Positions 1-64,000 of a DNA stretch of 64,000 nt are shown here, one piece after another; within the stretch, counting starts at the first letter, position 1, and the number at the start of each line of letters is the position of its first letter. Made by a program: the position numbers and the translations under genes. The notes beneath the pieces were generated by a model that ran no database searches, was not told where the DNA came from, and saw only the letters and a program-made list of their open reading frames with translations. Source of the stretch: a virus. The stretch covers positions 48,863 through 112,862 of the IMG/VR virus record IMGVR_UViG_3300033149_004566; one strand, given 5' to 3'.

Positions 1-55
1 CACTACAAGATTAAAAGAACTGGCATTAAAAGCTTCGCAGACCATACCGAAGCCG

Positions 56-262
56 ATGCCGACCCAGCAATCTTTATTGGACATACAATTATTCCTTCAG
101 CAAAATCCGGTTAGCGATGATCCGGCCGTTAATGAGGAAGTCTACAAGCACCTCGAAAACCTGGCCGGCATAGCACAGGCCGTTGCACAAAAAACTGGAA
201 ACTGTTACGTGATAAAAAGAGTGACGTGTGGCGGCGTTGAGGGGGGCGTTCAGGCTGAATGA
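56..262 (+). CDS. Hypothetical protein (may be the 3' part of a longer ORF starting before the window)
   Basis: ORF in operon direction, overlaps next ORF. Confidence 0.4.
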   Translation: MPTQQSLLDIQLFLQQNPVSDDPAVNEEVYKHLENLAGIAQAVAQKTGNCYVIKRVTCGGVEGGVQAE

Positions 263-1072: not shown

Positions 1073-1458
1073 TTGAAAAGGGCATGTGCCCTATTAGAGC
1101 CCCACATAGAGCTAAAAAAATACGTGCCATGATTTCCGAGTTTGGATTTCGGATAGGCGACCCCGAGCTCAGATCTCCTTTAACTATGGACTTGCTTTTG
1201 AAAAATAGAGAAAAAATTCAAAAACAAATTGCCGAAGAAACGTCAGAAACTGCTCTGGAAATGCTGAATAAATCTCTAAATAAATTGAATGACAGGATAA
1301 AGTATCGCGAGGAAATGTTGCGGACGGTTTTATATCCGAAGGGTAAAGTTCCTTTCTCGATACAAAAAAAGTTTCCGATGTCGTTCTGGTCTACTAAAGG
1401 TGGGTTGAGAAATGTTCAAACGGTTGGTGTGAGAAGGCGTGGACGTAAGAAGCATTAG
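1069..1458 (+). CDS. Hypothetical basic protein upstream of terminase
   Basis: ORF coupled to neighbours. Confidence 0.6.
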   Translation: MIEKGMCPIRAPHRAKKIRAMISEFGFRIGDPELRSPLTMDLLLKNREKIQKQIAEETSETALEMLNKSLNKLNDRIKYREEMLRTVLYPKGKVPFSIQKKFPMSFWSTKGGLRNVQTVGVRRRGRKKH

Positions 1459-3127
1459 TCCGTTTTTGGATGATTTTCTAAAAAAATACGATTTCAAGGG
1501 CATGGATGATAACAGAATCATGAAGATGCTCTTGTCGTCTTTAGATTGGTCTACGTTTGCGGAAACGTGGTTTAGAAACCCAATAGATCCCACGCTACCA
1601 TTAAAATTGGAAAAGTTTCAGCGCCGCATCATAAATTATTTTCAATACGGCAAGTGCAGTAACATAATTGTCAAGTGCCCCCGTCAATTTGGTAAAACCA
1701 CTCTCATATCGATATTGTGTAATTTAATTGCCATTTTTGATCCGGGTGCTAAGATAGGCCTATTTTCTACATCACACGACCAGTCCAAGGAGATATTGGG
1801 TAAGGTCAGGAAATTCATGAGAACGTCGGCATTTTCTTACTTACTTGACGATAAAAGCGTTCAAACGCAAACCGAAATAAATTATAAGGATCCTCGCGGC
1901 CTTGGGCATGGGTGCAGGATTAAAGCGTATTCTAGTTCTGGCAAAACCGTTCGTGGCCCCGATTTGACTTACACGTTTATGGATGAAATGGGCCAAATGG
2001 ACGACGACTTCGTAAATCAGGTTGTCCGTCCGATGGGAAGGGCTGTTGGAAAGAAAGAACTCGGGGCAAGCACTCCTTTCGGTACGAGGGGCGAGTTTTG
2101 GAACTCACATGAGAAGCCGTATCATTGGGAATGTCAATCGTGTCATGCTAAGGGCTTTGATGAACCACACCCTTACACGTGCCCGAAATGCGGCGGTTCA
2201 GTTCAGACTCTTGGCCAATATAAAGTGTTTGATGTTTCACCTCTTGACGTGTCTTGGATCACGCCCGAAAAACTTGCGGCAGAAGCTGCACGTCTCGGCC
2301 CGATTGCAGCGCAACAGGAGCTGTTTGGAGAGTTTATCCCGGCCGGAGATACTTATTTTAGACACGACTGGATAGTGAATGCCAGGGTTTTCACGCCAGA
2401 GCAAAATTCAAGATTTTCATCCATGGGAAAACCGTATTATACCTATTATCTTTCCACGGATTATGGTAAACAACGTGATAGAGGCGTGATCATGATAGGC
2501 CATTTTCAGGATGACGTGTTGTATCTGGATTGGGTCGAATCACATCTAAAAATGCCGTATCCAAGATTTCAAGATAGAATGAAAACTCTTTGTGATAGAT
2601 ATAATGTTTCAGAGGCCATTTTGGATGGGAACGGTGTCGGAATTGCTCTCATAGATTATCTCCGCGAGGACGTGCAGGTGCCGATTTTTACCAACAAGCC
2701 CGATTTGGGCCCCGGATATAAGTACGGTAACAAGGAGAAATTTCAGATGTTGGAAGCTCTTGCCAACATGTTGATACGGAAGAGAGTTCGTTGGCCGTAT
2801 CATGAAAATCACTCTGACCCGAGGCAGGAAATGTATGAGTTATACATGATGGAGCAGGAGCTCATCAATTATTCTTATGAATGGGGAAAATCGTCAATCA
2901 TAATGGGAACTCAGAGCGAGCACGACGATAGGGTCATGGCTTTGGCACAGCTCGTTGGGGCAACAATGATGACACATTTTGACGATGTCATGCCGTATGG
3001 GGCTTCTGACGTGTCAAGAGATGATCGCGGATGGCCGGTTTTTGACGAGGTCGGGGAAGAATTTGACGTGATGTGGGTTGATAACACGACGGATCCGGAG
3101 TACGAAATATATGACACCATCTTCTGA
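1439..3127 (+). CDS. terL: Terminase large subunit with a zinc-ribbon insertion
   Basis: Walker A CPRQFGKTT, Walker B TFMDE, motif III ASTP, nuclease STDYG and HDDRVMALA; CQSC...CPKCGG insert. Confidence 0.95.
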   Translation: MDVRSISPFLDDFLKKYDFKGMDDNRIMKMLLSSLDWSTFAETWFRNPIDPTLPLKLEKFQRRIINYFQYGKCSNIIVKCPRQFGKTTLISILCNLIAIFDPGAKIGLFSTSHDQSKEILGKVRKFMRTSAFSYLLDDKSVQTQTEINYKDPRGLGHGCRIKAYSSSGKTVRGPDLTYTFMDEMGQMDDDFVNQVVRPMGRAVGKKELGASTPFGTRGEFWNSHEKPYHWECQSCHAKGFDEPHPYTCPKCGGSVQTLGQYKVFDVSPLDVSWITPEKLAAEAARLGPIAAQQELFGEFIPAGDTYFRHDWIVNARVFTPEQNSRFSSMGKPYYTYYLSTDYGKQRDRGVIMIGHFQDDVLYLDWVESHLKMPYPRFQDRMKTLCDRYNVSEAILDGNGVGIALIDYLREDVQVPIFTNKPDLGPGYKYGNKEKFQMLEALANMLIRKRVRWPYHENHSDPRQEMYELYMMEQELINYSYEWGKSSIIMGTQSEHDDRVMALAQLVGATMMTHFDDVMPYGASDVSRDDRGWPVFDEVGEEFDVMWVDNTTDPEYEIYDTIF

Positions 3128-3884
3128 CTTGCGGCCGAAAATATCCCTTTTTACGTTATTGCCTTACGTGATTCAGGAGCATAAAGCCAAGCGTGCCGGC
3201 TTACACTACGACTTTCGCGTGAAGCGCGGCGAAAATGATTGGGAATCCTGGGCGATAAGAAAGGGATTTCCGAAAAAGCCCGGGATAAAACATCTGGCCG
3301 CACCGACGCCGAGTCATGATGAATATTGGGCAAAATTTAGCGGCGTCATACCCAGGGGTTACGGCTCCGGTAGACAGAAAGTCGTTGAAAGCGGAAAAAT
3401 AGACGTGATAAGGGAGCGAAAGAAAAAAAATAAATCGATTACTTTCAAAAAGGGAAAAGATTATTACACCATGATAAAGTTAAAAAAGGGAAAAAATTGG
3501 TTGATTTTTAAAAACGAGTCGGTGAAGTGGCGCAGGACGAAGAGCGGGGGCAAATTTCCGAAGATCGATGAGATGGAAAAGGGAATGCCAAAAATGACGA
3601 ACAAGCAATATAAGGAGTTTTACAAGCGGATGTTGGACTTGGGCTTGTTGAATCAATATAAAACGATTGGTAAGCCCATAAAACAGGATCATGGGGGCAT
3701 ACCCATAATAGAAGATGGAATGTCGGCTCTTTCGGCTTATCCTACAGCTATAGGGGAAGTGTGTCCGAAATGTGGACACCCGGAAATAAAAACGTGGCAG
3801 CGTCAGACTAGATCTGCTGACGAACCGATGACGCAGTTTTTCAGATGTGTCAGGTGCGGATATACCTGGAGGGAATACGATTGA
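3111..3884 (+). CDS. LigD 3'-phosphoesterase domain fused to a C-terminal TFS/TFIIS zinc ribbon
   Basis: YVIQEHKAKRAGLHYDFRV..SWAIRKG..KHLA.PT.SH..FSGVIP.GYGSG matches LigD PE; CPKCGH..QTRSADEPMTQFFRCVRCGYTWREYD matches the TFS C-ribbon; ATG 3111 preceded by GGAG. Confidence 0.9.
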   Translation: MTPSSDLRPKISLFTLLPYVIQEHKAKRAGLHYDFRVKRGENDWESWAIRKGFPKKPGIKHLAAPTPSHDEYWAKFSGVIPRGYGSGRQKVVESGKIDVIRERKKKNKSITFKKGKDYYTMIKLKKGKNWLIFKNESVKWRRTKSGGKFPKIDEMEKGMPKMTNKQYKEFYKRMLDLGLLNQYKTIGKPIKQDHGGIPIIEDGMSALSAYPTAIGEVCPKCGHPEIKTWQRQTRSADEPMTQFFRCVRCGYTWREYD

Positions 3885-6404: not shown

Positions 6405-8663
6405 ATGATACCCGTGTCCGTATTGATGGAACCGCCCAAGGTGGTAAAAGATCCTTTAAAATCATCGTCATTGATAAAGTCATTCGTGATGATGAATAAA
6501 ATGAAATTTAAGGGTCTGGTTCCAAAAATAATGGACGCTATCAGGCAATCCAGGCGCGTTGTTCAGATGGAAACCGGTGCACGATATCTCAAGAGATACA
6601 TCGATAACATGTTATATAATAGCATTGTCGATCCGCATTTATTGGATAGGATGAAGTCATTCGTGGAAAACACGTATATTCAACACTCTAGAATGTTGCA
6701 AGAAGAATTGTATAAATTGAAGATGGTTCCCACGACAATGGCCGTCATGACTCCTACTGATGAGGACAGGGTAGAGGATAGAAAGGATACTATAGAAAAA
6801 ATGGCAAGCCTGGAAGCCGAACGCTTGAGTGCGAGGATTCATGACATAATAGATAGGGCTTATCATAATGCCGAACCGTTATACAAAATAAAAAAAGAAC
6901 TACAAAAATCCATAAAAGTTAGCAAGAAAGAATCCGCTAGAATTGCCAGAACCGAGCTCATAAAAACCATGAACTTGGCCAGGTTGGAACGTATGACTTC
7001 ATCGGGGATCGAATATTATCAGTGGGTTTCGGCTCCTTCGTTTGATGAGAGATTGTGTCCTTTATGTGGCGAATTAAATGGAAAAGTAATAAAGTTGGGC
7101 AGGTCGTTTTCGGATTTAGTGCGAAACGAATCATCCAAGAAAATAATGGGAACTAGACAGATCTATTATCCTCCGGCACATCCGAATTGCAGGTGCACTA
7201 TAAGGCCATCTTATGCTCCGGTAATTACCAGGCCGTTAAAAGAACCGAAATTTATAAAGAAAATATTCGATAAGTTTCCTGGCTTGAGGCCCAAAACCTT
7301 GATAACACAAAAGATCGGCCCGACTTCGATAGATATCATACAGGCGGAAGAATTAGAGGACTGGCACGAATTGCACGATTTATATTTAAATGAATCGAAA
7401 AGATGGGGTGGCGATCTTCGTAAGCGATTGATATATCAGGCGATGGAAGCAAAAAATAGGGCAATGAAGGAAGACATAGAATTATTCGAGCGCGATAACT
7501 TGGAGGAAATGGAAAAGCCGAAATGGACGCATTATCCTTTAACAAAAGATGAAATTTATTATCATTATGCGCGAAATTGGGATAAATTGTATCCGGAATT
7601 GAAGGGCCGAAGAGTGGCGATCCGTAACCGCAGGGGCGTCATTTTACGTAATTGGGAGCCCGGTGGAAAGCCCATAGAAATAAAAAATAAAAATGATTTA
7701 AAAAAAGTAGTCTATAATAAAAATGCGGTTGAATTGATTCCGGAGTTGAGCACCAAAAGGATGAAACCATCAAATACAAGAAGGTTTCTCGTGGATTTAG
7801 ATTCAAATAGACCGATAGACGAGACGGTTGTCAAAAAAACAGTTGAAAAAATGAAAACGCTGCCGGTCAATAATGTTCAGGTTATATTTTCCGGGAAGCG
7901 TGGATATCACGTTAGAGGTGATACAAAAAAGAGTTACACGTGGAAAAAAGCGAGAAAAATGCTTCGTGAGGCGATGAAGCCTCTATCAGAACAATACAAT
8001 GATATAATTTTTGATTTATCACCCATGAAAAGACGTGGAGTTAGTGTATCTCCTTATAGTTTGAGATATTTGCCGACAGAAAGACAGGGCGTTGCACATC
8101 ACGTGCAATTTGAAGAGTGGTATGAAAAGGGTGCGTTAGGCACGCGGGACATAATTCCGGAAAAATTAAAATTGCCTAGCGGAAGAAATGCTTTCTTCAG
8201 GAAAACGTTTCTTGGCATCCAAAAACGAAAGTTGTATACCGAACAGGAATATAAATTGCAGGCGGCTTTACCGATCATATCGGCATTGAAACACGATCTC
8301 GATTTATCCGATTCGGTACAAAAAGAAGCGAAAAGGATATTTAAAAAGGCTTATAGTAGCGGGATAACACAGGGTAGAAAAACATCGTCCAATGCCGCGG
8401 TATCTGTTTACAATGCCATGAGATCGTTGGGAATGAGCAGGCCGATAAAAGATTTTCTTCCGCATGCAAATGTAAAGACCGGATCTTTTGTCAGGGCGGT
8501 TAAAAAATTTCAGGACGCTTTAAACTTGCCAAAATTTAAAGTCGGAAAGCGCGCCGACGTGGAAGAGGCAAGAAAGTATTATAAAAGCATGAAACGTACC
8601 GGTATAAGCAAGCGTAAAGTTGCAAGAATGTTTGGCGTGTCTCCGTCGAGTATAGGTGATTAG
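6405..8663 (+). CDS. MuF/SPP1 gp7 head morphogenesis protein fused to a LigD-type AEP polymerase domain and a TFB-like cyclin/HTH region
   Basis: MuF: RIARTE, WVSA..DERLCPLC, PPAHPNCRC; AEP: LTKDEIYYHY, LVDLD, FSGKRGYHV, IFDL, VSPYSLR; TFB: LDLSDSVQKEAKRIFKKA..GITQGRKTSSNAAVSVYNAMR..RPIKD, C-terminal SKRKVARMFGVSPSSI. Confidence 0.88.
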   Translation: MIPVSVLMEPPKVVKDPLKSSSLIKSFVMMNKMKFKGLVPKIMDAIRQSRRVVQMETGARYLKRYIDNMLYNSIVDPHLLDRMKSFVENTYIQHSRMLQEELYKLKMVPTTMAVMTPTDEDRVEDRKDTIEKMASLEAERLSARIHDIIDRAYHNAEPLYKIKKELQKSIKVSKKESARIARTELIKTMNLARLERMTSSGIEYYQWVSAPSFDERLCPLCGELNGKVIKLGRSFSDLVRNESSKKIMGTRQIYYPPAHPNCRCTIRPSYAPVITRPLKEPKFIKKIFDKFPGLRPKTLITQKIGPTSIDIIQAEELEDWHELHDLYLNESKRWGGDLRKRLIYQAMEAKNRAMKEDIELFERDNLEEMEKPKWTHYPLTKDEIYYHYARNWDKLYPELKGRRVAIRNRRGVILRNWEPGGKPIEIKNKNDLKKVVYNKNAVELIPELSTKRMKPSNTRRFLVDLDSNRPIDETVVKKTVEKMKTLPVNNVQVIFSGKRGYHVRGDTKKSYTWKKARKMLREAMKPLSEQYNDIIFDLSPMKRRGVSVSPYSLRYLPTERQGVAHHVQFEEWYEKGALGTRDIIPEKLKLPSGRNAFFRKTFLGIQKRKLYTEQEYKLQAALPIISALKHDLDLSDSVQKEAKRIFKKAYSSGITQGRKTSSNAAVSVYNAMRSLGMSRPIKDFLPHANVKTGSFVRAVKKFQDALNLPKFKVGKRADVEEARKYYKSMKRTGISKRKVARMFGVSPSSIGD

Positions 8664-9231
8664 ATTGCCGATAACAGTAAAAATGAGCTCTTTAAAATTA
8701 AAAAGGTTGATTCCACAGGCAATATATCATATAAAAAGCGAAGCCGCGCAAATATTGATGTTTAGCATAATAGAAGTTTTCATGCAACAGGGACTTCCGG
8801 ATGAACAATGGAAGCAGTTGTCGGCGATAACTGTCGAGAAAAAACACTCCAGATCTATTTTGATAGATAAGGGATTTTTGATGAACTCCATTACGGTTGG
8901 GCCAATCGATGTTGATAAACCCGTGGAAGTTGGAATATTTGAAGGGCCCGCTCTCAGGTATGCTTGGATACATGAGTTTGGTGGCACGATTCCGGTTACT
9001 GACAGCATTAGAAAATTTTTTATAGCAAAGACCGCAGAAGAACGAAGACAACGTCCAGGATTGCCTGAAGATTCTTACACGTGGCATCCTTTGAGAAATG
9101 ATACTAACGTGATATCAATTCCGGCAAGACCCTTTATGAGGTGGGGCGCCATCATTGCACGTCCTAAAATTAGTAAAATGGCTGAAAGAGTTTGGTATAC
9201 GATGATTAATCAGGGATTGATAATTAAATGA
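8656..9231 (+). CDS. Phage virion morphogenesis protein (Mu gpG / tail S-like)
   Basis: WKQLS..T..KK..ILIDKGFLMNSIT, YAWIHEFGG, IPARPFM. Confidence 0.85.
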   Translation: MIRLPITVKMSSLKLKRLIPQAIYHIKSEAAQILMFSIIEVFMQQGLPDEQWKQLSAITVEKKHSRSILIDKGFLMNSITVGPIDVDKPVEVGIFEGPALRYAWIHEFGGTIPVTDSIRKFFIAKTAEERRQRPGLPEDSYTWHPLRNDTNVISIPARPFMRWGAIIARPKISKMAERVWYTMINQGLIIK

Positions 9232-10064
9232 AAACATTACCCATTTATACGTTGCAAGACACTCTAAATCCTGAAATTTGGATAGGAGATGGTAAAAATG
9301 CAAGATTGCGAAAAAAAATTAAAAATGTCATCATGGATTCCGTTCGTAAATCTTTGGATAAATACGGTGGTAAGCCAAAGCGTATCATCATCGTTGGCTC
9401 CTCTGTTGCTTATAGATGGCGAAAAGACGGTGATATTGACGTACACGTTGAGGGAAAATTTCCCATCAATGACTATGAGGTGGACGAATATAAAATACCC
9501 GGATCAAAATTGACTATAGAGGTGGTATTAACCAATCAAAAATTTCCCAGTACAACGCGCGCTGAGGGCGTTTATAACGTGGTGATGGATAAATGGATTA
9601 AAACTCCAGAACGATTTCCGGGCAAGGTTTATTGGGATCCATTAATAGAGGAAGCGTCTTCATGGGCTAGAAAGGTGGATCTCGATATGGGCGAATTAAA
9701 ACGCGATCTTCTCGAATATATTTTATATAAAGAGAATGGCGGCGACGAGTCTGCCCTTGCAAGAAAAGCCGACGAAATAAAATCCGATTTGAATAGCATT
9801 GTTGATACTTGGGATGCTCTAAAAAATGAAAGAACGAAGGCACTTTCCGGCGATTCCGACGACACGAGGTTTTTTAAAAATCCGAGCAAGTCATCCATGT
9901 TGCAACCGGAAAATTTGATATTTAAAATACTGCAGAGATTTCAGTACAACGATTTGATGAAGCGCGTGAAACAACTCGTCAGGGATCTTCAGGACGAGAC
10001 GAATTTTGATGTTATTGAGAGGATAATAACGAGATTTTTGAAGAAGGAAAGGTGGATTAAATGA
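9228..10064 (+). CDS. Pol-beta-superfamily nucleotidyltransferase
   Basis: LNPEIW, IIIVGSS.AYRW..DGDIDVH (GS..DxD), GVYNV..DKW. Confidence 0.85.
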   Translation: MKTLPIYTLQDTLNPEIWIGDGKNARLRKKIKNVIMDSVRKSLDKYGGKPKRIIIVGSSVAYRWRKDGDIDVHVEGKFPINDYEVDEYKIPGSKLTIEVVLTNQKFPSTTRAEGVYNVVMDKWIKTPERFPGKVYWDPLIEEASSWARKVDLDMGELKRDLLEYILYKENGGDESALARKADEIKSDLNSIVDTWDALKNERTKALSGDSDDTRFFKNPSKSSMLQPENLIFKILQRFQYNDLMKRVKQLVRDLQDETNFDVIERIITRFLKKERWIK

Positions 10065-10540
10065 ATAGGAAAGCCAAACTCATGCTCAAAGGTATGAACG
10101 AAAGAAATGCAAAGATTTCCAATGAATTAATGTCAATAGCCATACCCGGAGAACACGGCACGGGAATACCGGTTCTTCATCCGTATCAAAGATTGAGACA
10201 TTGGTATTTCAAGAAAAAAATGGAACAGGCCAAAAAATTGGCAAAAAAATATAAAGAAGGAACTCCTGAATACAGGGCATACATGGATGCATTTAATGTT
10301 GCAGTTGGTAAAACTTTAGCGGCTTATAGAAAGAGCCGCGATCTGACTTTCCCGATGATGGCCGAGTTTGAAGAATTAAAAGAAAAATTGGAAAGATTTG
10401 CGTGTCCTAAAAGTGGTGAACGCAGCGGTTATAACGTTCATGCTGTTTGTACTGAAAGTGTATGCGGCGACGCAGAAGACGTGGAAAAATGTAGAGAATC
10501 TGATAAATATAAGAGATGTACTGAAAAGGTAGGAAAATGA
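10061..10540 (+). CDS. Hypothetical protein, Cys-rich C-terminus
   Basis: Coupled ORF; NVHAVCTESV motif. Confidence 0.65.
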   Translation: MNRKAKLMLKGMNERNAKISNELMSIAIPGEHGTGIPVLHPYQRLRHWYFKKKMEQAKKLAKKYKEGTPEYRAYMDAFNVAVGKTLAAYRKSRDLTFPMMAEFEELKEKLERFACPKSGERSGYNVHAVCTESVCGDAEDVEKCRESDKYKRCTEKVGK

Positions 10541-10776
10541 TACGTAAAGCTCGCTCTAAAAGACCGTATAAGCCGTTAGATCTATCAAAACGCTTACAGA
10601 TAATGTTGATGGCAATGGAAGATTATTCAATATCTTCCATATCTAAAGAGTTACGTGTTGCTCGTAATACCGTTAAAAAGTATATTGAGCCAAAAGAGAA
10701 GGATAGAACTATGACCGACATTGTAGAAGTGGTCAAGGTCTTGACAAAAAACAAGAAAAAAACTCCATTAGAATGA
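10537..10776 (+). CDS. Helix-turn-helix protein
   Basis: YSISSISKELRVARNTVKKYI HTH pattern. Confidence 0.8.
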   Translation: MIRKARSKRPYKPLDLSKRLQIMLMAMEDYSISSISKELRVARNTVKKYIEPKEKDRTMTDIVEVVKVLTKNKKKTPLE

Positions 10777-10860
10777 CGTACAGGCGATTTTAACCATACT
10801 TAAAATGACTTATATGATTAATATTAGAGTTTTACGTTATTTTTAGTAATATACACTTGA
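10777..10860 (+). promoter_or_regulatory. AT-rich intergenic region, candidate promoter for the capsid genes
   Basis: Only sizeable gap in the head module; TTAAAA/TTATAT elements. Confidence 0.3.
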
Positions 10861-12093
10861 GTGATCTCGATGAAACATGATGAGTTGGAATACTACAATG
10901 AGCCAAAAATTACGAGTCTGGAGAGAAAAGGTAACAGTTTGATATTTGAAACCGTTACTCTCACGGATAAGTACGTGCCTACAAACGTTCTTAAAGAAAA
11001 TTACAACACAATAGAAAATAAAGAAATGAGATGGCGGCATTTACCTCCGGAAGAGAATGCGAGTTCTTTTATAGGGGTGGTAAAAAATGCCAGGCTTGAA
11101 GAGATCACTGATAAGTCTGGCGATAAAGTGACGGCGTTGATTACTAAAAATGAAATCTTTGGTAACACGAAGTCGCAAAAAAAAGCACAATCTCTGATAG
11201 AAAAATGTTATGAAAACGGCGAGGGCGTTTGTGGTGTAAGTGCCGGCTTTGTTAAATTATCTGATGATGATGGTAATGTTGTCGGCATGCATATAAGAGA
11301 ATTGAGTCTTACACCGAGACCTAAATGTAAGGAATGTGGTGTGTTGACTCCAGAAGGTGTCGTATTAGAGATGACAGATAAGTTAAAAGAACATTATAAA
11401 CCAGACATTGGCGACTCGCAAAAACCAAAAGGACACATGGAAGGCGGACAAAAAACATCTTCTGCCAAGTCCGACGTTGGAAGCGGAGTCAACGAAGAGT
11501 CTGGAAAACAGAAAAATAAAAAGAAAAAATTGAAACCATCTTCATATGGCATGGAAGACGATGAAAGTCTTCATGGTGCCATAGGGGTGTACGAAAAGAT
11601 GAACAAGGTTTTAGAAAATAGGAACATTGAACTCGAAGTTCTTTCCGAAGAGCTGGTAAGTAGGGTTGAATCTTATGAATCAAAAATAAAGCAATTGGAA
11701 GATTTATTGGTTCAGTCTACCGCTTATATTGAAGAGCTTGAGGATAAGAATGAAAAACTTGCTACGATTCCATTACGTATGAGAATTGCGGAACTAAAAG
11801 GCTTGGAAGATCCCGAAGAAATTAAAGAAGTTCTTGAACGATATGAAGACAGATCATTCGATTATTTAGTCGATATAGTTGAAGAATTGGAAGATTTGAA
11901 ATCTGAAGGGCAGGACAAGATTATAGCGGAAGAGTACGAGGAAAAACAACCCGATAAACAGGTAGCAATTGCCATGGAAGAAGAACAGGTCGTACAATTT
12001 GAAGATTTGACGGATCCCAATGACATATTAAAACATGCCGGTTTTTCGGAATATGAAATACAGCAAATTTCACGGGGAGCATCTGTTAGGTGA
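10861..12093 (+). CDS. Prohead protease fused to coiled-coil scaffolding domain
   Basis: RWRH..IGVV..GVSAGF..RELSLTPRP resembles HK97-type protease; acidic heptad C-terminus; lies before cement and capsid genes. Confidence 0.8.
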   Translation: MISMKHDELEYYNEPKITSLERKGNSLIFETVTLTDKYVPTNVLKENYNTIENKEMRWRHLPPEENASSFIGVVKNARLEEITDKSGDKVTALITKNEIFGNTKSQKKAQSLIEKCYENGEGVCGVSAGFVKLSDDDGNVVGMHIRELSLTPRPKCKECGVLTPEGVVLEMTDKLKEHYKPDIGDSQKPKGHMEGGQKTSSAKSDVGSGVNEESGKQKNKKKKLKPSSYGMEDDESLHGAIGVYEKMNKVLENRNIELEVLSEELVSRVESYESKIKQLEDLLVQSTAYIEELEDKNEKLATIPLRMRIAELKGLEDPEEIKEVLERYEDRSFDYLVDIVEELEDLKSEGQDKIIAEEYEEKQPDKQVAIAMEEEQVVQFEDLTDPNDILKHAGFSEYEIQQISRGASVR

Positions 12094-12098
12094 TTTAA

Positions 12099-12527
12099 AT
12101 GACAAATGTAAATTACATATTGAAACGAGATTTTCCGATCACGTTTGAAGCCACCGCAACAGAAGATTTGGGTATGGATAGTACCGGCAAAACATGGCCG
12201 GAAGCACCGGATACGACTGTTGGGTTATTGCTTCAATTTACAGGCGACGATCAGGTGGGATTGTGCGATCCGTCCAGTGGAACGTACTTTGCTGGAGTTA
12301 GTGAAATTCCAGTTTATTCCGGGCAAAAAGCCACGGTTAGAACATCAGGAATCATTTTGGTTGTTGCTGGCGAAACAATAGTCGCGGGACAACACGTGAA
12401 AGTTGACGAATCCACGTCTCAACGAGTTGCAGTAGCAGGCGCAACGGAAGCCACCAAGATTATTGGTAGAGCAATAACTGGCGGAAACGACGGAGACACG
12501 ATAAAAATCTTATTGAGAGGTTATTAA
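12099..12527 (+). CDS. Capsid cement/decoration protein (DUF2190-like)
   Basis: FAGVS..V..GQKATVRTSG..VVAGETIVAGQ.V..IIGRAITGG.DGD.I.ILL; GGTGA RBS; precedes capsid gene. Confidence 0.75.
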   Translation: MTNVNYILKRDFPITFEATATEDLGMDSTGKTWPEAPDTTVGLLLQFTGDDQVGLCDPSSGTYFAGVSEIPVYSGQKATVRTSGIILVVAGETIVAGQHVKVDESTSQRVAVAGATEATKIIGRAITGGNDGDTIKILLRGY

Positions 12528-12528
12528 C

Positions 12529-13467
12529 ATGAGTGTTACACATTTAGCTAATACAGCATTACATCCGAGAGTTATTCTTGCAATCGCTGTAAAGCGAGCG
12601 CAGGGTGCGATGATCAGTACCGATTTCTTACCGGAACGTCCAGTAAATAATAAGGTATTTGAATATCGCGAGTACGGTCAAACAGATCGTGAAATCGGAA
12701 CGTTGGCTCCGGAAGTAAATGAAGGCGATACTACACCATTGGACAAACTTGGATACGAGATGCGAGTTAAACGAGCAAAGGAAATACGTTTGGGAACTCT
12801 AATTACAGAACAAGCACAAAAGTTCTTGTTTAGAGATGTGGTTAAAGACCACGTAACATATATTACGGATCGAATTGCTCTTAAACAGGAATCTATGGCA
12901 TTCGACGAATTATTTGAGGTAAGTTCTGTAACCGGTGCTTTAAAAACGACTAAAGATCTGACAACGTCATGGGACGAAACCGATGCCGAAATCCTTAACG
13001 ATTTAGCCGATGCTAAGAAACGGTTTAGGGATATTGCTCACGTCATTCCGGATTCTTTGGTTGTTGGTAGCGATGGTGAGAATGCTTTACTAAAGTCAGT
13101 TGAAATGAAATTATGGAGATATTCCGGGCCTTTCACTCAAACACCGATCATTGAAGGAACGATTGGTCGTCTTAGGGGATTGGACGTGTGGGTTACGGAT
13201 GCGGTTAAATTAAAAGATAATACAGATCCTACGGCTGGATTAATTCCGATTGTTCAGGATCGCGTTTTGGTCACGCGAAGAGGGCCAGATCTGGGTTTTA
13301 CTGCTATTGCCGAACCTTTTAATTCGCGACGAATTCCCAAGCCAGGTCGTCGATCCATCATGCTTCAAATGTTTAAGACATTTTTACCGGTGATCATACG
13401 ACCCAGGCGCATCTACATAATTAACAATATCAGTTCGTCTTTATCAACTGATACTGCTTTATCGTAA
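12529..13467 (+). CDS. Major capsid protein, HK97 fold
   Basis: APEVNEG E-loop, PDSLVVG, GTIGRLRGLDVWVT; position; followed by terminator-like hairpin. Confidence 0.88.
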   Translation: MSVTHLANTALHPRVILAIAVKRAQGAMISTDFLPERPVNNKVFEYREYGQTDREIGTLAPEVNEGDTTPLDKLGYEMRVKRAKEIRLGTLITEQAQKFLFRDVVKDHVTYITDRIALKQESMAFDELFEVSSVTGALKTTKDLTTSWDETDAEILNDLADAKKRFRDIAHVIPDSLVVGSDGENALLKSVEMKLWRYSGPFTQTPIIEGTIGRLRGLDVWVTDAVKLKDNTDPTAGLIPIVQDRVLVTRRGPDLGFTAIAEPFNSRRIPKPGRRSIMLQMFKTFLPVIIRPRRIYIINNISSSLSTDTALS

Positions 13468-13492
13468 AATGCCACCAGGCATTTATTTTTTT
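13467..13492 (+). terminator. Hairpin plus T-tract after capsid gene
   Basis: AAATGCC-ACCA-GGCATTT followed by ATTTTTTT. Confidence 0.5.
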
Positions 13493-13511
13493 ATATTAAG
13501 GAGGCTGTTAT

Positions 13512-14690
13512 ATGAAAAGAATACTTTTTTGTTCCGATAGTCCACTTGTAAATAGTGGGTTCGGACACCAATTACACGGTATATTGACGGGATTGAAACA
13601 ATTATATCCCGGAGCATACGATTTACATTGTATCGGATGGCAATACGTTGGCAGGCGATTGAATGTTGACGGATATACATTGTGGTCTAGAAGTGCCATG
13701 GGGTTTGGTGTTGACGTTACATCCGATTACTTGAATATATTAAAACCGGATATTTTATTTACTTTGGGCGATTTATGGATGATTGAATGGTTGACAAACG
13801 TAGATAGAGATTGTCCTTGGGTCGCTTATTATCCGCTTGATGGCACGCCGTTGCCGAAAAGATGGGTTGAAATAATTAAAAAAATGGATTATCCGGTAGT
13901 TTTTTCAAAATTTGCTTTAAATTTATGTAGAAAAGCCGGATTACGGCCTTATTACATACCGCATCATGTCGATACAAGCGTTTTCTTTCGCTTACCAGAT
14001 GAGACAAGATCCAAGTTAAAGGAAAAGTACGGCATTCCGCCGGATAAAAAGGTAATATTGACGGTTGCACGTCCCAATCCGAGAAAAAAATTGCATCTCG
14101 CGTGTAGAGCTCTGGACTTGTTGTATAAAAAAAGACAGGATTGGGTTTGGTATTATCACGGTGATATGGCTCACGATAAGATGTTGAGCAAGGGAACGTT
14201 CAAGGACGAATTGGAATATTCTTTATTCTATAAAAATGGCGCGTTTAAGAGATCTCATTTTAATTATTTCATGGGCGTGTCGGACGCGCATTTGAACGAA
14301 ATATATAACATGGCTGACGTTTATTTCATGCCAACTGGCGGCGAAGGATTTGGATTAACAGTTTTAGAGGCTGGAATGACCGGGTTACCATCCGTTTTAA
14401 CCGATTATACAACGTCAAGAGAGTTAATTGAGGGCAGAGGAGAATTGATAAATGTTAGATCTTATTCGCCCGATGGAAACTCCGAAGGCGTGTTAAAGGC
14501 CAATATAGATATTTACGATGCGGTAGAAAAACTCGACACGATGCTGTCGAATGATGATTTGAGAAAAGAATACGGTTATAAATGTCAGGAAGAATTCATC
14601 AAGTATGAAAAAATGCTGATAATGCCGATGTGGCACGAATTATTTTCAAAAATAAATTACAATTTGGTGGCTCCGGAATGGCAAGAATAA
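13512..14690 (+). CDS. Glycosyltransferase, GT4/GT-B
   Basis: SDSP..SGFG, IPHHVDT, VARPNPRKK, YNMADVYFMPTGGEGFGLTVLEA. Confidence 0.93.
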   Translation: MKRILFCSDSPLVNSGFGHQLHGILTGLKQLYPGAYDLHCIGWQYVGRRLNVDGYTLWSRSAMGFGVDVTSDYLNILKPDILFTLGDLWMIEWLTNVDRDCPWVAYYPLDGTPLPKRWVEIIKKMDYPVVFSKFALNLCRKAGLRPYYIPHHVDTSVFFRLPDETRSKLKEKYGIPPDKKVILTVARPNPRKKLHLACRALDLLYKKRQDWVWYYHGDMAHDKMLSKGTFKDELEYSLFYKNGAFKRSHFNYFMGVSDAHLNEIYNMADVYFMPTGGEGFGLTVLEAGMTGLPSVLTDYTTSRELIEGRGELINVRSYSPDGNSEGVLKANIDIYDAVEKLDTMLSNDDLRKEYGYKCQEEFIKYEKMLIMPMWHELFSKINYNLVAPEWQE

Positions 14691-16272: not shown

Positions 16273-17434
16273 GTTAAAAGTATTAATGTTGTTGAGAGAA
16301 GACGTGGAAATGCCGTCTGGTGGGATGGGAGTCCATGTTATAAATATTATCAAGTATCTAAAGAATGACTTTGACATTACTATTGGGTGTCTTGCTTGTG
16401 ACCAAGTAACGTTAGTCAAGAAATGGAACGATTGTAGGTTATTAAAAATTGGATGCGAAAATACAATTAATAATACCCTTGAAATGCCGCTCACCGAGGA
16501 AATAATTGAATATAATATTCTTATGAAAATTTTTAGCACGTTTATGAAAGATTGGAAATTTGATATTATCCATATCCATGATAGTCCATTTTGGTTTTGG
16601 GTGTCTAATTTACTTGCACCTTATTATAACTCATCGGTTGTGATGACGGTTCATCTTTCTTATTTTCTCTCGATTACAGCTCCCGATCCTATGAATTACG
16701 CGTTTGAGTTTTATTCTTATCATGTACAAAAAGAAGGACAAGCAATAAACTATTGTGATAATTTGGTAACCGTGTCAAAAAAATATGCGAATTCTTTGAA
16801 GACTTTATTAATTAATGGAAAAAAAATTCACGTCATTCCAAATGGCGTGAATTATGACGAATTGAATAAGGTCAAATATGATAAAAAATTAAAAGAAATT
16901 TTTACCAATGGAAGAAAACTAGCGGTATTCGTGGGGCGAACGGTTTGGACAAAAGGAATTGATATGATATTAGACATTGTTTCCGAATTTCCTGATTATA
17001 ATTTTGTCTTTATTTCTAATATTTCGCCAACACTAGAGCCAATTGTTCCACTTATAGGAAGGATTATAAAATTAATGGATGAGTATGATAACTTGATTTG
17101 GCTTAGAGATGTTGATGATGAAATGAAGTTTAAGATAATGAAAGTAGCAGACGTGGGACTTATGCCATCAATTCATGAACCATTTGGAATTGTGGCTTTA
17201 GAATGGATGGCACTTGGAATTCCATTAATTGTAAGTAATTTAGTTCCACCATGTAATGATGATAATTCTATTTTGATTGAACCAAATTCGGAAGCTTTGG
17301 CTGCTGCTTTGAGAAAATTTGATCCAGATACATACCCCAATTACAAACGACATAATGGAAAAATGAATGCACGTAAACATAGTTGGGATGCAACGGCATC
17401 TAAACTAAAAGAGGTTTATGTTAAATGCCGATAG
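16259..17434 (+). CDS. Glycosyltransferase, GT4/GT-B
   Basis: GGMGVHV, DIIHIHD, IPNGV, FVGR..KGID, PSIHEPFGIVALEWMALGIP. Confidence 0.93.
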   Translation: MSGDKLKVLMLLREDVEMPSGGMGVHVINIIKYLKNDFDITIGCLACDQVTLVKKWNDCRLLKIGCENTINNTLEMPLTEEIIEYNILMKIFSTFMKDWKFDIIHIHDSPFWFWVSNLLAPYYNSSVVMTVHLSYFLSITAPDPMNYAFEFYSYHVQKEGQAINYCDNLVTVSKKYANSLKTLLINGKKIHVIPNGVNYDELNKVKYDKKLKEIFTNGRKLAVFVGRTVWTKGIDMILDIVSEFPDYNFVFISNISPTLEPIVPLIGRIIKLMDEYDNLIWLRDVDDEMKFKIMKVADVGLMPSIHEPFGIVALEWMALGIPLIVSNLVPPCNDDNSILIEPNSEALAAALRKFDPDTYPNYKRHNGKMNARKHSWDATASKLKEVYVKCR

Positions 17435-17580
17435 GTAAGATAATTTCAGTTAAGAAAGTTAAATGTGTTTGTGGATTTACTACTATGAATGGATGGATAA
17501 TAGAAGACGATATTATAAAAAAAATGAGATTTTGTAAAAATTGCGAGGCAGTGGTTGATAATAATGGAGATTATGTGTAA
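17425..17580 (+). CDS. 51-aa zinc-ribbon-like protein (absent from ORF track)
   Basis: MPIGKIISVKKVKCVCG...RFCKNCEAVVDNNGDYV*; GAGG upstream; stop abuts next ATG at 17581. Confidence 0.6.
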   Translation: MPIGKIISVKKVKCVCGFTTMNGWIIEDDIIKKMRFCKNCEAVVDNNGDYV

Positions 17581-17937
17581 ATGACAGACGAAGGACTGAT
17601 TGAACTAACCGAGTCGATTCAAGTAAATGATAGTTTAACGTTAACTCACGTGAGTATTTGTAATATCACTATTGAAGAGTCTAGACCGTGGGCTAACAAG
17701 TTGGGCTACTTTGACATTTGGCTTGCGTACGGATATTTACGTTCAGATGGACACATGGTAGAGCCAGAATATAACGGTTTAAATATAATAATAAGTGAAA
17801 AAGACGAATTATCAGAATTCAATGAATTGTATAATAAAGTTACAACGTTAAAGTCTATAATGCTCGACGTCAAATTAATAATAGGCCAATTTTTAATCGA
17901 TAAAGGTTATATTGTAGGAAATCTAATAATGGAGTAA
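17581..17937 (+). CDS. Hypothetical protein
   Basis: ORF in operon. Confidence 0.65.
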   Translation: MTDEGLIELTESIQVNDSLTLTHVSICNITIEESRPWANKLGYFDIWLAYGYLRSDGHMVEPEYNGLNIIISEKDELSEFNELYNKVTTLKSIMLDVKLIIGQFLIDKGYIVGNLIME

Positions 17938-17941
17938 TTTT

Positions 17942-19159
17942 ATGTCAACAGTAACATATTGGGCAGAATGGAGAGATGCTGATGGAAATCTAATAACAGG
18001 ACTTAGTCCTTCTATTACTATTTATGAACAGGGCAACCCATCCCCAGTAGTTAATGACTCCATGACAAGATTTGTTACAACGGCAATTGATGGTGTTTTT
18101 TATTATTCTTTTACTGGATTTGACGTGACAAAATTATATTATGCTGTTTGTGATGCTGGTTTAACATTGGCTGAATGGAATCGGTATAGAATTCCCAATA
18201 TGATTCATAATCACATATTTACAAAAATCAAGGACGTTGAAGTTGACACGCAGAGCATAGAAGGAAAAGTTGATACAATTGATACTATTGTTGATACAAT
18301 AAAATTAAAGACCGATAATTTACCATTAGATCCAGCAAGTGAAACTAATGTTGATGCTAATGAAGTAAAAATTGATATAATTAATACAAATGTGGGCTTA
18401 ATTTTACCAGAAACGAATAAAATTCAAAGCATTCTAGATGATACGTCAGCAATCGATTCGCGTCTTCCTTCTGATCCGGCTGATCAGAGCCAAGTCGAAG
18501 CGGCAATATCGGCGTCAGAAACTAACATAATAACCGAAGTAAATGAAAACGAGTCAAAAATAGATATAATTGACGCGATTGTCGATGCCATATTGCCCGA
18601 GACCAATAAAATACAGGGCGTTCTTGACGATACTTCTGCCATTGATGCGAGATTACCATCGGATCCGGCAGATCAAAGTCAGGTAGAAGCCGCAATAACT
18701 GCATCGGAAAACAACATACGGGGAGCCGATTCGGATACTTTAAAGACTTTATCAGACCAATTAGATATTGCACAAGCCGATTTAGACAATCCGGATCAAT
18801 ATAAGGCCGATGTTTCTCTTCTTGCGCTTGAAGCAACGTCGCAGATAATAAAAGGACATCTTGAAAACGGTACCTATGGTCTGGATGCTTTGAGAATTTT
18901 GATAGAGGCGATAGATACATCGGCCGAAACTAAAGCAAGGTTTGACGAAATTAAAGGTGCCGGATGGACTGATGAAACGTTAAAATCCATTCGTGACGCC
19001 ATAGCTACTTGTGGTAGCGTGTGGTCTACCGCAGAGAAGGATCAGGCATTGCAAGACTTGATCGATTTAAAAGGAGATCTCGGAGATGCGTCTGCGGATG
19101 GATCAACAGTATATAAAGAGGCGAAACAGGATGGTTTTCCATCAATTAGAGATGCTTGA
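17942..19159 (+). CDS. Fibre/whisker-like structural protein: Ig-like N-terminus plus coiled-coil repeats
   Basis: TGLSPSITI..GVFYYSF N-domain; LPxDPA repeats; duplicated 43-aa unit. Confidence 0.7.
   Translation: MSTVTYWAEWRDADGNLITGLSPSITIYEQGNPSPVVNDSMTRFVTTAIDGVFYYSFTGFDVTKLYYAVCDAGLTLAEWNRYRIPNMIHNHIFTKIKDVEVDTQSIEGKVDTIDTIVDTIKLKTDNLPLDPASETNVDANEVKIDIINTNVGLILPETNKIQSILDDTSAIDSRLPSDPADQSQVEAAISASETNIITEVNENESKIDIIDAIVDAILPETNKIQGVLDDTSAIDARLPSDPADQSQVEAAITASENNIRGADSDTLKTLSDQLDIAQADLDNPDQYKADVSLLALEATSQIIKGHLENGTYGLDALRILIEAIDTSAETKARFDEIKGAGWTDETLKSIRDAIATCGSVWSTAEKDQALQDLIDLKGDLGDASADGSTVYKEAKQDGFPSIRDA
18401..18718 (+). repeat. Intragenic duplication of a 43-codon unit (18401-18529 and 18590-18718)
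   Basis: ILPETNKIQSILDDTSAIDSRLPSDPADQSQVEAAISASETNI vs ILPETNKIQGVLDDTSAIDARLPSDPADQSQVEAAITASENNI. Confidence 0.9.
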
Positions 19160-25614: not shown

Positions 25615-27218
25615 TAAATCCTTTAAACGTGGTTTCTATACCGCTCAATTTCACTTCTATAAAGGATTTCCATCCCATATTTGAGTTGTATATGAGTGGA
25701 TCTGGCGTATCCAGATTATGGGTTAGTAATGAAAATGTAGAAGGAAACATAATAATAGAGCGAGAGATAGATGGAATTACGAGGCTTAAGATGGATCTTT
25801 TCAATTTGAGTGAAAGCAAGTTGAATACCGGATTATTATTGGTAAATGAATCTGAAAGATGGTATTTAACAATAAAGCTCGGTTTTGAAAGCGACGTGTC
25901 TAGACATATTTCATCTGTTGGTGATTTTTGGATAGATTACGTGTATATTAATAAATTGGAAGACGGAACCATACATCTTCATATTAAAGGCACTGGATAT
26001 TTGGATAAATATTTATCGGACGTGACCATAGATAATCCGATATATTTGGGAGTCATTACTACAAATTCATTCATCACGTTGTTAGGCGGTATATTGTCCG
26101 TATTTAATTATCCGAGGGTGAAAAAATATTCCATAGAGTTGCTGTCAGTTCCTCCGAAAAAATCGGACGAAGCATTGAGATGGAACGGCTCGGATGTTCC
26201 CGAAATGACAATACATGTCGGAAGTGTTAAGGCTGATAAAACTGGAGTGGAAATATCGAACGTGATTCCCATTCTTGGTGAAAGCTTGATCGATTTAATA
26301 ACAAAATTTATGGTAAATAACGGTCTCAATGATGGCGTTCATTATTCTATAATAAATCGAAATATATTCATATCCGATAAAATATATGAATTGAGCTTGA
26401 GTGGAAAGGTCAATATAGGCAATTACGACATCATAAACATTAATCGAAAAAACATATCCGGAACCTATTATTACGAATTGACGCTTAATGGAAAGCCAGA
26501 AATTTTTCCCGGAAAATCAGTAATTTTCAGGTCTAAAAATTTAATAGAGTCTGAATTTTCGCTCAATGAGTTGAATCGGGGACAAAAAGATATTTTGAAT
26601 TTATCAAAAAAAGAAATGATAGTTATCAGTGCATCACACGAGTTTAGAGCGAAAGAGGGTTTCTTGACAAAAGTGGTATTGGTTGATAACTCGTTAAAAT
26701 CAAACGACTTGAAAAAGATATTGATGCATTCTTTATCACCGTCTGCTAGGGTTTCTTTCAATATAAGACAACACGTGAATAGAAAATCGGAGATAAATAA
26801 AAATCCCTCATCGTATGCACAAATTGCAAACGTGGGACAAAATGTATGCGAGTTAAAAGTTCCGAATCAAAAAAACATAATTCCACCACAAAAGTTAAAA
26901 CGATTGACGAATTATTCTAACGTGTTAAACGTTACTAGACTATATCCATTTATGGGAACCAAATTTGGAATGTCGGCTCCTTTAGGTATAGATGATTGGG
27001 TGGTATATGATAAGCTTGATGGTGAAAATCCAATTATTTTGGGTTGTATAAAGAATGAGACACAGACACTTCCATTTGGTGTTACGGAAAGTGATCTATT
27101 ATCCAAGATAATTTTATATTATGGTAATAATTTGATAATGATGGACGAACAGGAAATAACGTTGAAGGTCGGAGTCAGGACTTTTAAATTGACCGCTACC
27201 GGAGTTTCCGTGTCATGA
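25611..27218 (+). CDS. Baseplate hub fused to spike OB-fold (VgrG-like arrangement)
   Basis: IKLGF, LTLNGKPEIFPG, VISASHEF..GFLT hub motifs; C-terminal PFMGTKFGMSAPLGIDDWVV..DGENPIILG resembles gp5/gpV OB-fold. Confidence 0.6.
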   Translation: MINPLNVVSIPLNFTSIKDFHPIFELYMSGSGVSRLWVSNENVEGNIIIEREIDGITRLKMDLFNLSESKLNTGLLLVNESERWYLTIKLGFESDVSRHISSVGDFWIDYVYINKLEDGTIHLHIKGTGYLDKYLSDVTIDNPIYLGVITTNSFITLLGGILSVFNYPRVKKYSIELLSVPPKKSDEALRWNGSDVPEMTIHVGSVKADKTGVEISNVIPILGESLIDLITKFMVNNGLNDGVHYSIINRNIFISDKIYELSLSGKVNIGNYDIININRKNISGTYYYELTLNGKPEIFPGKSVIFRSKNLIESEFSLNELNRGQKDILNLSKKEMIVISASHEFRAKEGFLTKVVLVDNSLKSNDLKKILMHSLSPSARVSFNIRQHVNRKSEINKNPSSYAQIANVGQNVCELKVPNQKNIIPPQKLKRLTNYSNVLNVTRLYPFMGTKFGMSAPLGIDDWVVYDKLDGENPIILGCIKNETQTLPFGVTESDLLSKIILYYGNNLIMMDEQEITLKVGVRTFKLTATGVSVS

Positions 27219-27544
27219 GTGCAATTTTGGTTAGGCCGCGGGGCGGATTTAATGCTAGCAATATTTCGACGTATTTCGTTATGGTTCCACCGATGGTAGC
27301 TCTATTAAACGTCACGGACACGTATCATGATAAATTAAAGGTGAATGACTTGCCGGCCGTATCCATGGTGACAATTCAATGGCAATCAACCGTGCCTCCA
27401 TACGTGTTTAATTCGACTGTCAATGGATCCAGCATGACGGATGTAGATGGAATGAAGATCATTAAAGTTGGAGATATTGGTGTCGGTAACGGCGTGGCCA
27501 CGGTGATAAATTCACCGATAACTACGGAGTGGGTTTCTTTATGA
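27215..27544 (+). CDS. PAAR-like spike tip protein
   Basis: KLKVNDLPAV, NGSSMTDVDGMKIIKVGD; follows spike. Confidence 0.45.
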   Translation: MSAILVRPRGGFNASNISTYFVMVPPMVALLNVTDTYHDKLKVNDLPAVSMVTIQWQSTVPPYVFNSTVNGSSMTDVDGMKIIKVGDIGVGNGVATVINSPITTEWVSL

Positions 27545-63869: not shown

Positions 63870-64000
63870 AATAATTCCGCCGCTTCCCTGTACTTGTTCA
63901 CGTCGCCGTGAACGAATTTCAGTTTAAACTTGTTTTTTTCAAGATCTTTTATGGTCTCCTTCATGTCGTCTTCTGGAGTCCAATAGCACTCGTATCCGTA
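63866..64000 (-). CDS. 3' end of a hypothetical gene truncated by the window edge
   Basis: ..YGYECYWTPEDDMKETIKDLEKNKFKLKFVHGDVNKYREAAELLW* overlapping ligase start. Confidence 0.5.

Follow-up and report, generated by a model that had tools for sequence, protein, structure and literature searches.

A MuF head domain, a LigD-type primase-polymerase and a TFB core encoded in a single frame of a probable Asgard archaeal virus

The DNA analyzed here, a stretch of 64,000 nucleotides (hereafter, the window), comprises bases 48863-112862 of a 112,862-bp IMG/VR virus record (IMGVR_UViG_3300033149_004566), whose completeness is estimated by CheckV at 75%. At positions 6405..8663 of its plus strand lies a single uninterrupted frame encoding a fusion protein of 752 amino acids (P0001), in which a MuF domain, a polymerase domain of the LigD type and the core of the archaeal transcription factor TFB follow one another (Table 1). 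The original prediction, made from the sequence, had proposed such a tripartite protein, with all catalytic motifs of a LigD-type archaeo-eukaryotic primase-polymerase (AEP) and with a TFB-like domain devoid of the N-terminal zinc ribbon, and this architecture is confirmed by Pfam and NCBIfam matches, profile comparisons and alignments of structural models, the matches to Phage_Mu_F and TFIIB both exceeding the curated Pfam cut-offs. All motifs it had named were found at the positions it had given, namely, ARIARTE at residues 178-184 (nucleotide ~6936) and HPNCRC at residues 259-264 (nucleotide 7179) of the MuF part; VDLDS at residues 463-467 (nucleotide ~7794), SGKRGYH at residues 496-502 (nucleotide 7890), and IFDLSPMKRRG..SPYSLR at residues 535-554 of the AEP; and the TFB-like cyclin repeat, which appears as a TFIIB repeat at residues 617-703 (nucleotides 8253-8513).

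Two full-length homologs, P0003 (828 aa, from a 7-kb contig in ENA) and P0005 (795 aa, from a 3.3-kb contig in Logan), are 32-38% identical, and both carry the MuF, LigD_Prim-Pol, and TFIIB families in Pfam, collinear with P0001. In the 5.8-billion cluster set and in an exhaustive search of 1.84 billion cluster representatives, the whole architecture was seen, besides P0001, only in these two lineages, the overall protein space behind this result being about 15 billion proteins. The identical P0001 protein is encoded by a second contig of 117,419 bp, and an independent JGI contig, L104, reproduces the C-terminus of P0003, followed by homologs (49 and 53% identical) of the two genes that come next after the P0001 gene. 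A scan of IMG/VR with alignment A2 returned ordinary MuF proteins only, none of them reaching the AEP or TFB region, and tblastn matches to the INPHARED phages were confined to the MuF region. Viral contigs contained no match to a degenerate DNA pattern for DLSPMKRRG, and the JGI metagenomes contained one true match, which was L104, belonging to the P0003 lineage; in 185,579 species genomes the pattern yielded chance matches only.

The homologs also help to place the start of the gene. A shorter database record of the protein (P0002, 745 aa) begins at Met8 of P0001; both homologs conserve residues 2-17, which favors the ATG at 6405 over Met8, and P0002 is probably too short. The structural comparisons below are based on an AlphaFold2 model of P0001 residues 326-752 (predicted local distance difference test, pLDDT, of 84) and on a model of P0005 over its full length (pLDDT 82).

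The MuF core (SPP1 gp7/Mu gpF) scores 55.5 bits with PF04233 (cut-off 29.6) and 56.4 bits with TIGR01641 (phageSPP1_gp7, cut-off 39.65), and more than ten PHROG families of the “minor head / head morphogenesis” kind match the same region, with the best E-value of 1.8e-21. The cysteine cluster CxxC...HPNCRC (C218, C221, C262, and C264) is invariant across P0001, P0003, and P0005. The N-terminal ~290 residues of the P0005 model superpose on predicted models of viral minor capsid and head morphogenesis proteins with TMt up to 0.78, the matches including the head morphogenesis protein of Halobacterium phage phiH as well as fusions of MuF with ADP-ribosyltransferase and with zeta-toxin. Together with the head-module position of the gene, these matches agree with the MuF core proposed originally. 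The conserved linker that follows it (residues 267-374) has no match to any family.

An exhaustive search of the same 1.84 billion representatives yielded ~30 relatives of the AEP domain. Alignment A1, consisting of this domain and 18 short relatives, has 19 rows, all of which match PF21686 (E up to 0.01), and its profile matches Methanocella's non-homologous end joining (NHEJ) polymerase (5DMU) at E 8.8e-14 and the LigD/Prim-PolC polymerase domains of Pseudomonas aeruginosa, Mycobacterium smegmatis, and M. tuberculosis (2FAO, 5OP0, and 2IRU, respectively) at ~1e-10 (range to 5e-10). The model aligns to the LigD polymerase domain (PolDom) of M. tuberculosis with a Z-score of 20.1 and a root-mean-square deviation (rmsd) of 3.0 Å over 210 residues (Foldseek E 1.4e-8), and ranking of AEP folds by Z-score places LigD PolDoms and NHEJ polymerases (19-20) above Prim-PolC (17-18) and replicative PriS/Pri1 (14-15). 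Profile, fold, and motifs I-III thus all bear out the assignment of the middle domain to AEPs and, among them, to the LigD PolDom type.

The catalytic residues are intact: D464, D466, H502, and D537 do not vary among the three full-length proteins, and the motifs that contain them align to those of 2IRU, 5DMU, and 2FAO. With the LigD polymerase domains of M. tuberculosis, P. aeruginosa, and Methanocella and with Prim-PolC, the P0001 domain shares the fold, the DxD, SGxxGxH, and D..PYSLR motifs, and the N-terminal TK..YY motif; it differs from the LigD PolDoms in sequence (~16-18% identity), in being linked neither to ligase nor to Ku, and in being embedded in a predicted virion protein. Its longer relatives are LigD-like proteins of the Lig-Pol, Lig-Pol-PE, and Pol-PE types (PE, 3′-phosphoesterase), which indicates that the domain was drawn from a LigD-like repair system and not from a replicative primase. 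Nor does it need to be the replicative primase of the virus, since an ORF with a weak PriS-like match, a probable replicative primase, is found elsewhere in the record next to PolB (record 11522..14047) and a PD-(D/E)XK nuclease (record 10502..11296).

In the C-terminal part, PF00382 (TFIIB) covers residues 617-703 with an E-value of 3.1e-12 and 46.8 bits (cut-off 23.6), and a sequence match to the C-terminal core of Pyrococcus woesei TFB (TFBc; 1AIS/1D3U) has an E-value of 1.7e-7; phrog_20431, a PHROG of viral TFB-like proteins, also matches. The model of residues 609-752 aligns to residues 1100-1284 of 1D3U_B with a Z-score of 16.8 and rmsd of 2.8 Å over 142 residues, and the C-terminus also aligns to residues 105-287 of human TFIIB; hence the C-terminus does adopt the predicted TFIIB cyclin fold in the model. 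According to alignment A3 and the model, repeat 1 is a complete five-helix cyclin, followed by three helices corresponding to helices 3′-5′ of repeat 2. The helix-turn-helix suggested originally at the very end of the protein is therefore present, but not as a separate domain: it is a part of cyclin repeat 2, and the whole C-terminus is a TFB core.

Repeat 1 retains its hallmark residues (L632, A642, G657, R658, A665, Y669, A671, R673, G676, and L706), and of its positions that at least 70% of 13 cellular TFBs have in common, most are retained in the viral proteins. Arg673, aligned without gaps to Arg169 of human TFIIB, is invariant in three out of three viral proteins and 13 out of 13 cellular TFBs. 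In TFIIB, the substitution R169E prevents association with the complex of the TATA-binding protein (TBP) and TATA (Tansey and Herr 1997, as cited in PMC6004067). Repeat 2 is better preserved in P0003 and P0005 than in P0001, the ten helices of the P0005 model forming a complete two-repeat core, and thus the TFB core of P0001 is a reduced derivative. The N-terminal part of TFB is missing, as had been predicted for its zinc ribbon: alignment A3 and the model show that the zinc ribbon, B-reader, and B-linker are absent from P0001, their place being taken by MuF, the AEP, and a disordered linker of ~40 residues (pLDDT <50), whose length varies among the homologs. P0001 carries the only TFIIB match in the virus genome, and neither a TFB-type zinc ribbon nor a TBP is encoded elsewhere in it. 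Because the absent N-terminal part is the one that recruits RNA polymerase (RNAP), recruitment of RNAP by the canonical route is excluded. Compared with archaeal TFB and the eukaryotic TFIIB core, P0001 thus shares the hallmarks of repeat 1, the Arg169 equivalent, and the helix-turn-helix of repeat 2, and differs in being part of a fusion and not a stand-alone protein, as well as in the missing N-terminal elements and in the changes to repeat 2 considered below.

The gene belongs to a late structural operon with the order TerL, a fusion of LigD 3′-phosphoesterase with a TFS zinc ribbon (PE-TFS), the probable portal, a small acidic/basic ORF, the P0001 gene, Neck1, scaffold, major capsid protein, glycosyltransferases, and baseplate genes. 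The portal candidate has no sequence match in Pfam, PHROG, or PDB; its ten best named ESM Atlas clusters are all portal families (score 0.94), with TM of 0.5-0.56 to the Portal_Mu clusters. The PE-TFS protein, encoded between TerL and the probable portal, matches PDB entries 3P4H (E 5e-18) and 1QYP (E 2e-12), and no relatives of this fusion were found in IMG/VR or, beyond its own cluster, in the 5.8-billion cluster set. It is the second LigD module joined to a module of basal transcription in this operon.

According to PMC5512222, MuF domains are components of the head and a fusion hub, the attached effectors being presumed to be delivered along with the DNA. In PMC5576092, gp7 of phage SPP1 is described as binding the portal and present in one or two copies per capsid, and the title of a reference cited there calls it “required for efficient infection”; gp44 of phage 80alpha, a minor capsid protein whose gene lies between those of portal and scaffold, binds the ends of the DNA and promotes its circularization once it has been injected (PMC7290940). 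P0001 belongs to the same family (TIGR01641) and has the same gene position, whereas gp7 and gp44 are single-function DNA or portal binders without enzymatic or transcription-factor domains. Like the MuF-effector fusions, polyvalent proteins, and MuF polymorphic toxins (PMC5512222, PMC5576092), it combines an N-terminal MuF anchor, encoded by the portal gene, with an enzymatic C-terminal cargo; unlike them, it carries a LigD-type AEP and a TFB core, has an archaeal host, and displays no evident toxin/immunity logic.

PMC5512222 mentions no TFIIB domain, and stand-alone viral TFBs have been described in rudiviruses, magroviruses, and Asgard viruses and mobile genetic elements (PMC10768690, PMC13700489, and bioRxiv 10.1101/2021.07.29.453957). 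A literature search revealed no paper describing a MuF-AEP-TFB fusion. Fusions of MuF to effectors in phages and stand-alone viral TFBs were known already; a LigD-type AEP and a TFB core as the cargo of MuF have not been reported before. The virion RNA polymerase of phage N4 and the primases of conjugative plasmids (TraC1, Sog) provide a functional analogy only: they are nucleic-acid-synthesizing enzymes transferred with DNA, their folds are unrelated to that of the P0001 domain, and for P0001 such a transfer is proposed.

By analogy with these MuF-family proteins, we tentatively favor the interpretation that P0001 is a packaged and ejected pilot protein anchored by MuF, whose polymerase may fill gaps or extend the ends of the incoming DNA and whose TFB core may dock on TBP-promoter complexes. 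The neighborhood of head genes, the architecture of P0003 and P0005, and the syntenic downstream neck genes in L104 count in its favor. The MuF part would place a few copies in the capsid at the portal, as in the case of SPP1 gp7 and 80alpha gp44, and P0001 would exit together with the DNA, its C-terminal two thirds being the cargo. With ejection, two tethered modules would reach the incoming genome. The first of them, the LigD-type primase-polymerase, would fill gaps or elongate 3′ ends, for instance when the injected, terminally redundant DNA is repaired or circularized, possibly with the LigD 3′-phosphoesterase encoded three genes upstream as a partner; an attached end-processing polymerase would extend the end-binding and circularization role reported for gp44 (PMC7290940). 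The second module, a TFB core without zinc ribbon and B-reader and with the TBP-contact surface kept, would dock P0001 and the bound DNA onto TBP-bound promoter DNA, or would occupy such complexes. We infer encapsidation, ejection, substrates, and TBP binding of the protein, the proposed delivery being based on the precedent of the family.

Several observations weigh against this interpretation. Considered separately, the AEP domain of P0001 is weak in Pfam and NCBIfam (PF21686, 22.1 bits at a cut-off of 27.4; TIGR02778, E 1e-4), and of its counterparts in the homologs the one in P0005 scores above the PF21686 cut-off (28.3 bits) and the one in P0003 reaches 27.1 bits. In the TFB core of P0001, repeat 2 is truncated, and in place of the arginine of the recognition helix, invariant in 13 out of 13 cellular TFBs, each of the three viral proteins has Gly, Ala, or Thr (Gly751 in P0001), P0005 with its complete core included. 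By the range of the structural alignment this residue approximately corresponds to Arg286 of TFIIB, which we take to be a contact with the TFB-recognition element (BRE). Due to both changes, promoter recognition may be weak or different; with Arg673 kept and the arginine of the BRE helix lost, docking on TBP is predicted to be plausible and the canonical read-out of BRE unlikely. Further, neither Ku (PF02735) nor an ATP-dependent DNA ligase (PF01068) was found in the 112.9-kb record (~75% complete according to CheckV); of the usual partners of a LigD polymerase domain, it holds the PE module only, encoded by a separate gene. Thus, a self-contained NHEJ kit is not present, and end joining would need host enzymes or the Rnl1-like ligase of the virus. 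Finally, with one or two copies per virion the protein could not shut off host promoters.

The two C-terminal modules might also act as one device, the TFB core docking on the TBP-TATA complex of the incoming genome and the AEP, which replaces the RNAP-recruiting N-terminus of TFB, synthesizing RNA or a primer there. P0001 would then be a virion-delivered, TBP-guided initiating polymerase or primase, and the virus would couple LigD-type enzymes to host basal transcription via the TFB core and the TFS ribbon, a scheme that we consider unlikely, even if delivered primases and RNAPs are a known theme (PMC5512222). It is attractive for its geometry, as the AEP is located exactly where the zinc ribbon, B-reader, and B-linker of TFB sit, with a flexible linker of ~40 amino acids to repeat 1; the catalytic residues of the AEP are intact, the TBP-contact Arg673 is kept, and the second LigD module of the operon bears a TFS ribbon, a module directed at the RNAP secondary channel, which hints at a connection with the transcription machinery. 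The preference of LigD PolDoms for rNTPs would suit synthesis of RNA, but these domains are mainly enzymes of gap filling and extension, and their de novo priming is weak. Moreover, an AEP needs a single-stranded template, whereas the TBP-TFBc complex does not melt DNA, and the BRE-reading arginine is lost. According to the abstract of PMC5569661, archaeal viruses are believed to rely entirely on host RNAP and to bring no polymerase of their own; were this scheme true, archaeal viruses would have in P0001 their first known packaged nucleic-acid polymerase and likewise their first known packaged module of a transcription factor.

Absence of the zinc ribbon, B-reader, and B-linker from a TFB core with a conserved repeat 1 and the Arg169 equivalent is also what could be expected of a decoy competing with host TFB for TBP-promoter complexes and thus repressing host transcription, in which case the AEP would have an unrelated role in repair. 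Archaeal viruses are known to repress host transcription (PMC5123050 and PMC9501531), and P0001 holds the only TFB-like domain of the genome. We nevertheless find a decoy improbable, as the few copies in a virion fall far short of what a global shut-off requires, the gene is in the late structural operon, and such a role offers no reason for a fusion to MuF and the AEP that is conserved in three lineages.

It is similarly doubtful that P0001 acts without being delivered, the polymerase and TFB modules working at the portal or procapsid of the producer cell, where, for example, DNA ends and gaps would be filled or trimmed in the course of packaging with help from PE, and MuF being only an anchor. 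The location of the gene between the probable portal and neck genes, that of PE-TFS between TerL and the portal, and the portal binding of MuF/gp7 (PMC5576092) would be accounted for; however, characterized MuF-family proteins act after ejection (PMC7290940; title of the gp7 reference cited in PMC5576092), and the conserved TBP-binding surface would be left without an explanation. An artefact, be it a chimeric assembly or read-through of separate genes, is practically ruled out by the stop-free frame, its presence on two contigs, the existence of two collinear lineages with the same architecture, and L104.

Returning to the packaged pilot protein, a conserved head protein that combines an intact primase-polymerase with a TBP-docking TFB core would, in archaea, be the first candidate for a co-injected protein that starts or protects infection. 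It would bring the “polyvalent protein” principle of MuF fusions to archaea and add classes of cargo unseen in phages. The host probably belongs to the Asgard archaea, in which the transcription machinery is, among prokaryotes, the closest model of the eukaryotic one, and the polymerase and TFB domains of P0001 are amenable to in vitro tests that do not depend on growing this uncultivated virus.

Table 1. Domains and motifs of P0001 and other annotated features of the virus. Positions are those of the window unless marked “record,” which refers to the 112,862-bp virus record.
Feature	Position	Strand	Basis
P0001, whole gene	6405..8663	+	Open frame; two full-length homologs with the same three Pfam families
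N-terminal helical region, part of minor-capsid-protein fold, aa 1-144	6405..6836	+	Conserved from residue 2 in P0003 and P0005
MuF (SPP1 gp7/Mu gpF) core, aa 145-266	6837..7202	+	PF04233 E 1.2e-14; TIGR01641 E 3.2e-15; PHROG; invariant Cys cluster
Conserved linker with long helix, aa 267-374 (AEELEDW...WGG.LRK)	7203..7526	+	Invariant residues; model helix 12-44 (protein residues 337-369)
LigD PolDom-type AEP, aa 375-572	7527..8120	+	Profile; PF21686 in relatives; structure alignment
AEP motif I, D464-L-D466, metal-binding Asp pair	7794..7802	+	Invariant in P0001, P0003, P0005 and 19/19 rows of A1; aligns with DLDP of M. tuberculosis and Methanocella PolDoms
AEP motif II, S496-GKRGYH502	7890..7910	+	G497, R499, G500, H502 invariant; aligns with SGSKGLH/TGSRGLH of solved PolDoms
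AEP motif III (D537 in IFDLSPMKRRG) and SPYSLR strand	8007..8066	+	D537-G545, P550, S552, R554 invariant; aligns with VFVDWSQN...IAPYSLR of M. tuberculosis PolDom
Flexible linker, aa 573-610, in place of zinc ribbon/B-reader/B-linker of true TFB	8121..8234	+	pLDDT <50 at model residues 248-285
TFB/TFIIB cyclin repeat 1, aa 611-710, including R673	8235..8534	+	PF00382 E 3.1e-12; 1AIS/1D3U E 1.7e-7
Remnant of TFB cyclin repeat 2, aa 711-752, three helices including helix-turn-helix	8535..8660	+	Alignment A3; model helices 392-407, 411-418, 422-426
Terminase large subunit	1439..3127	+	TerL_ATPase, GpA_ATPase, Terminase_6N
LigD 3′-phosphoesterase (PE) fused to TFS/TFIIS C-terminal zinc ribbon, QTRSADEP kept	3111..3884	+	PF13298 E 8e-16; PF01096 E 1.2e-17; TIGR02777; TIGR01384
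Probable Mu-like portal protein, upstream of P0001	4192..6003	+	ESM Atlas leads and gene position
Neck1/tail-completion protein, start overlaps P0001 stop	8656..9231	+	phrog_26 E 1e-15; 49% identical syntenic homolog downstream of P0003 gene in L104
ORF with weak nucleotidyltransferase match	9228..10064	+	PF01909 E 0.0025
Scaffold protein	12099..12527	+	phrog_673 E 1.8e-9
Major capsid protein	12529..13467	+	phrog_1650 E 2.3e-14
ThiF/E1-like genes (three)	43309..43983, 50446..51540, 51530..52684	-	
JAB-like genes (two)	43980..45194, 52677..53456	-	
T4 Rnl1-type RNA ligase	62790..63869	-	PF09511 E 1.7e-17; only ligase detected in genome
Probable replicative primase, 349-aa ORF	record 9526..10575	-	Weak DNA_primase_S match, E 0.005, profile positions 1-161
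NrdD (anaerobic ribonucleotide reductase)	record 16810..18594	-	E 1.6e-147
Elf1-like elongation zinc ribbon fused to GT2 glycosyltransferase	record 27108..27938 (L119:9111-9938)	-	PF05129 E 7.5e-7, 29.6 bits (cut-off 29.8)
B12-binding domain protein	record 34813..35571	-	

Among the genes flanking the fusion, the ORF with a weak nucleotidyltransferase match, two genes downstream, is 53% identical to a part of a 504-aa ORF on the minus strand of L104, and is a conserved head-module gene. Outside the operon, the Elf1-GT2 gene is the third fusion of an enzyme with a transcription-factor module in this virus.

The gene content characterizes the virus as an archaeal tailed virus of 113 kb with baseplate genes, probably of the Helarchaeota “Nidhogg” type (Asgard). 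For the Nidhogg viruses of Helarchaeota from the Guaymas Basin, a PrimPol and a “ligD with TFS-II-like zinc finger” are listed, and a minor head protein and baseplate J are named among the Caudovirales hallmarks of Asgard viruses; TFB/TFIIB and fusions go unmentioned in the same preprint (bioRxiv 10.1101/2021.07.29.454249). The “ligD” of this description is the PE domain only. The present virus shares with it three ThiF/E1 genes, the “ligD”-TFS ribbon gene, RNA ligase, PolB, and the baseplate J gene; the ThiF/E1 and JAB genes match the ubiquitin-like systems reported for Nidhogg and thus support the identification. The TROVE domain reported for Nidhogg was not detected in this virus, and for this reason the identity is probable, not proven. 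The virus further encodes a C5 methylase, and the B12-binding protein and NrdD are auxiliary genes pointing to an anaerobic host. The scan for promoters and terminators used bacterial consensus patterns and, the host being archaeal, is uninformative.

A direct repeat of 114 bp occurs at the termini of the record (record 1..114 and window 63887..64000). It lies within apparent coding-type sequence and has no TATA- or origin-like features; we interpret it not as a true end but as overlap in the assembly of a map that is circular or permuted, so that it probably marks closure of a circular or circularly permuted genome. Circular permutation would fit headful packaging, the setting where proteins of the gp7/gp44 type occur.

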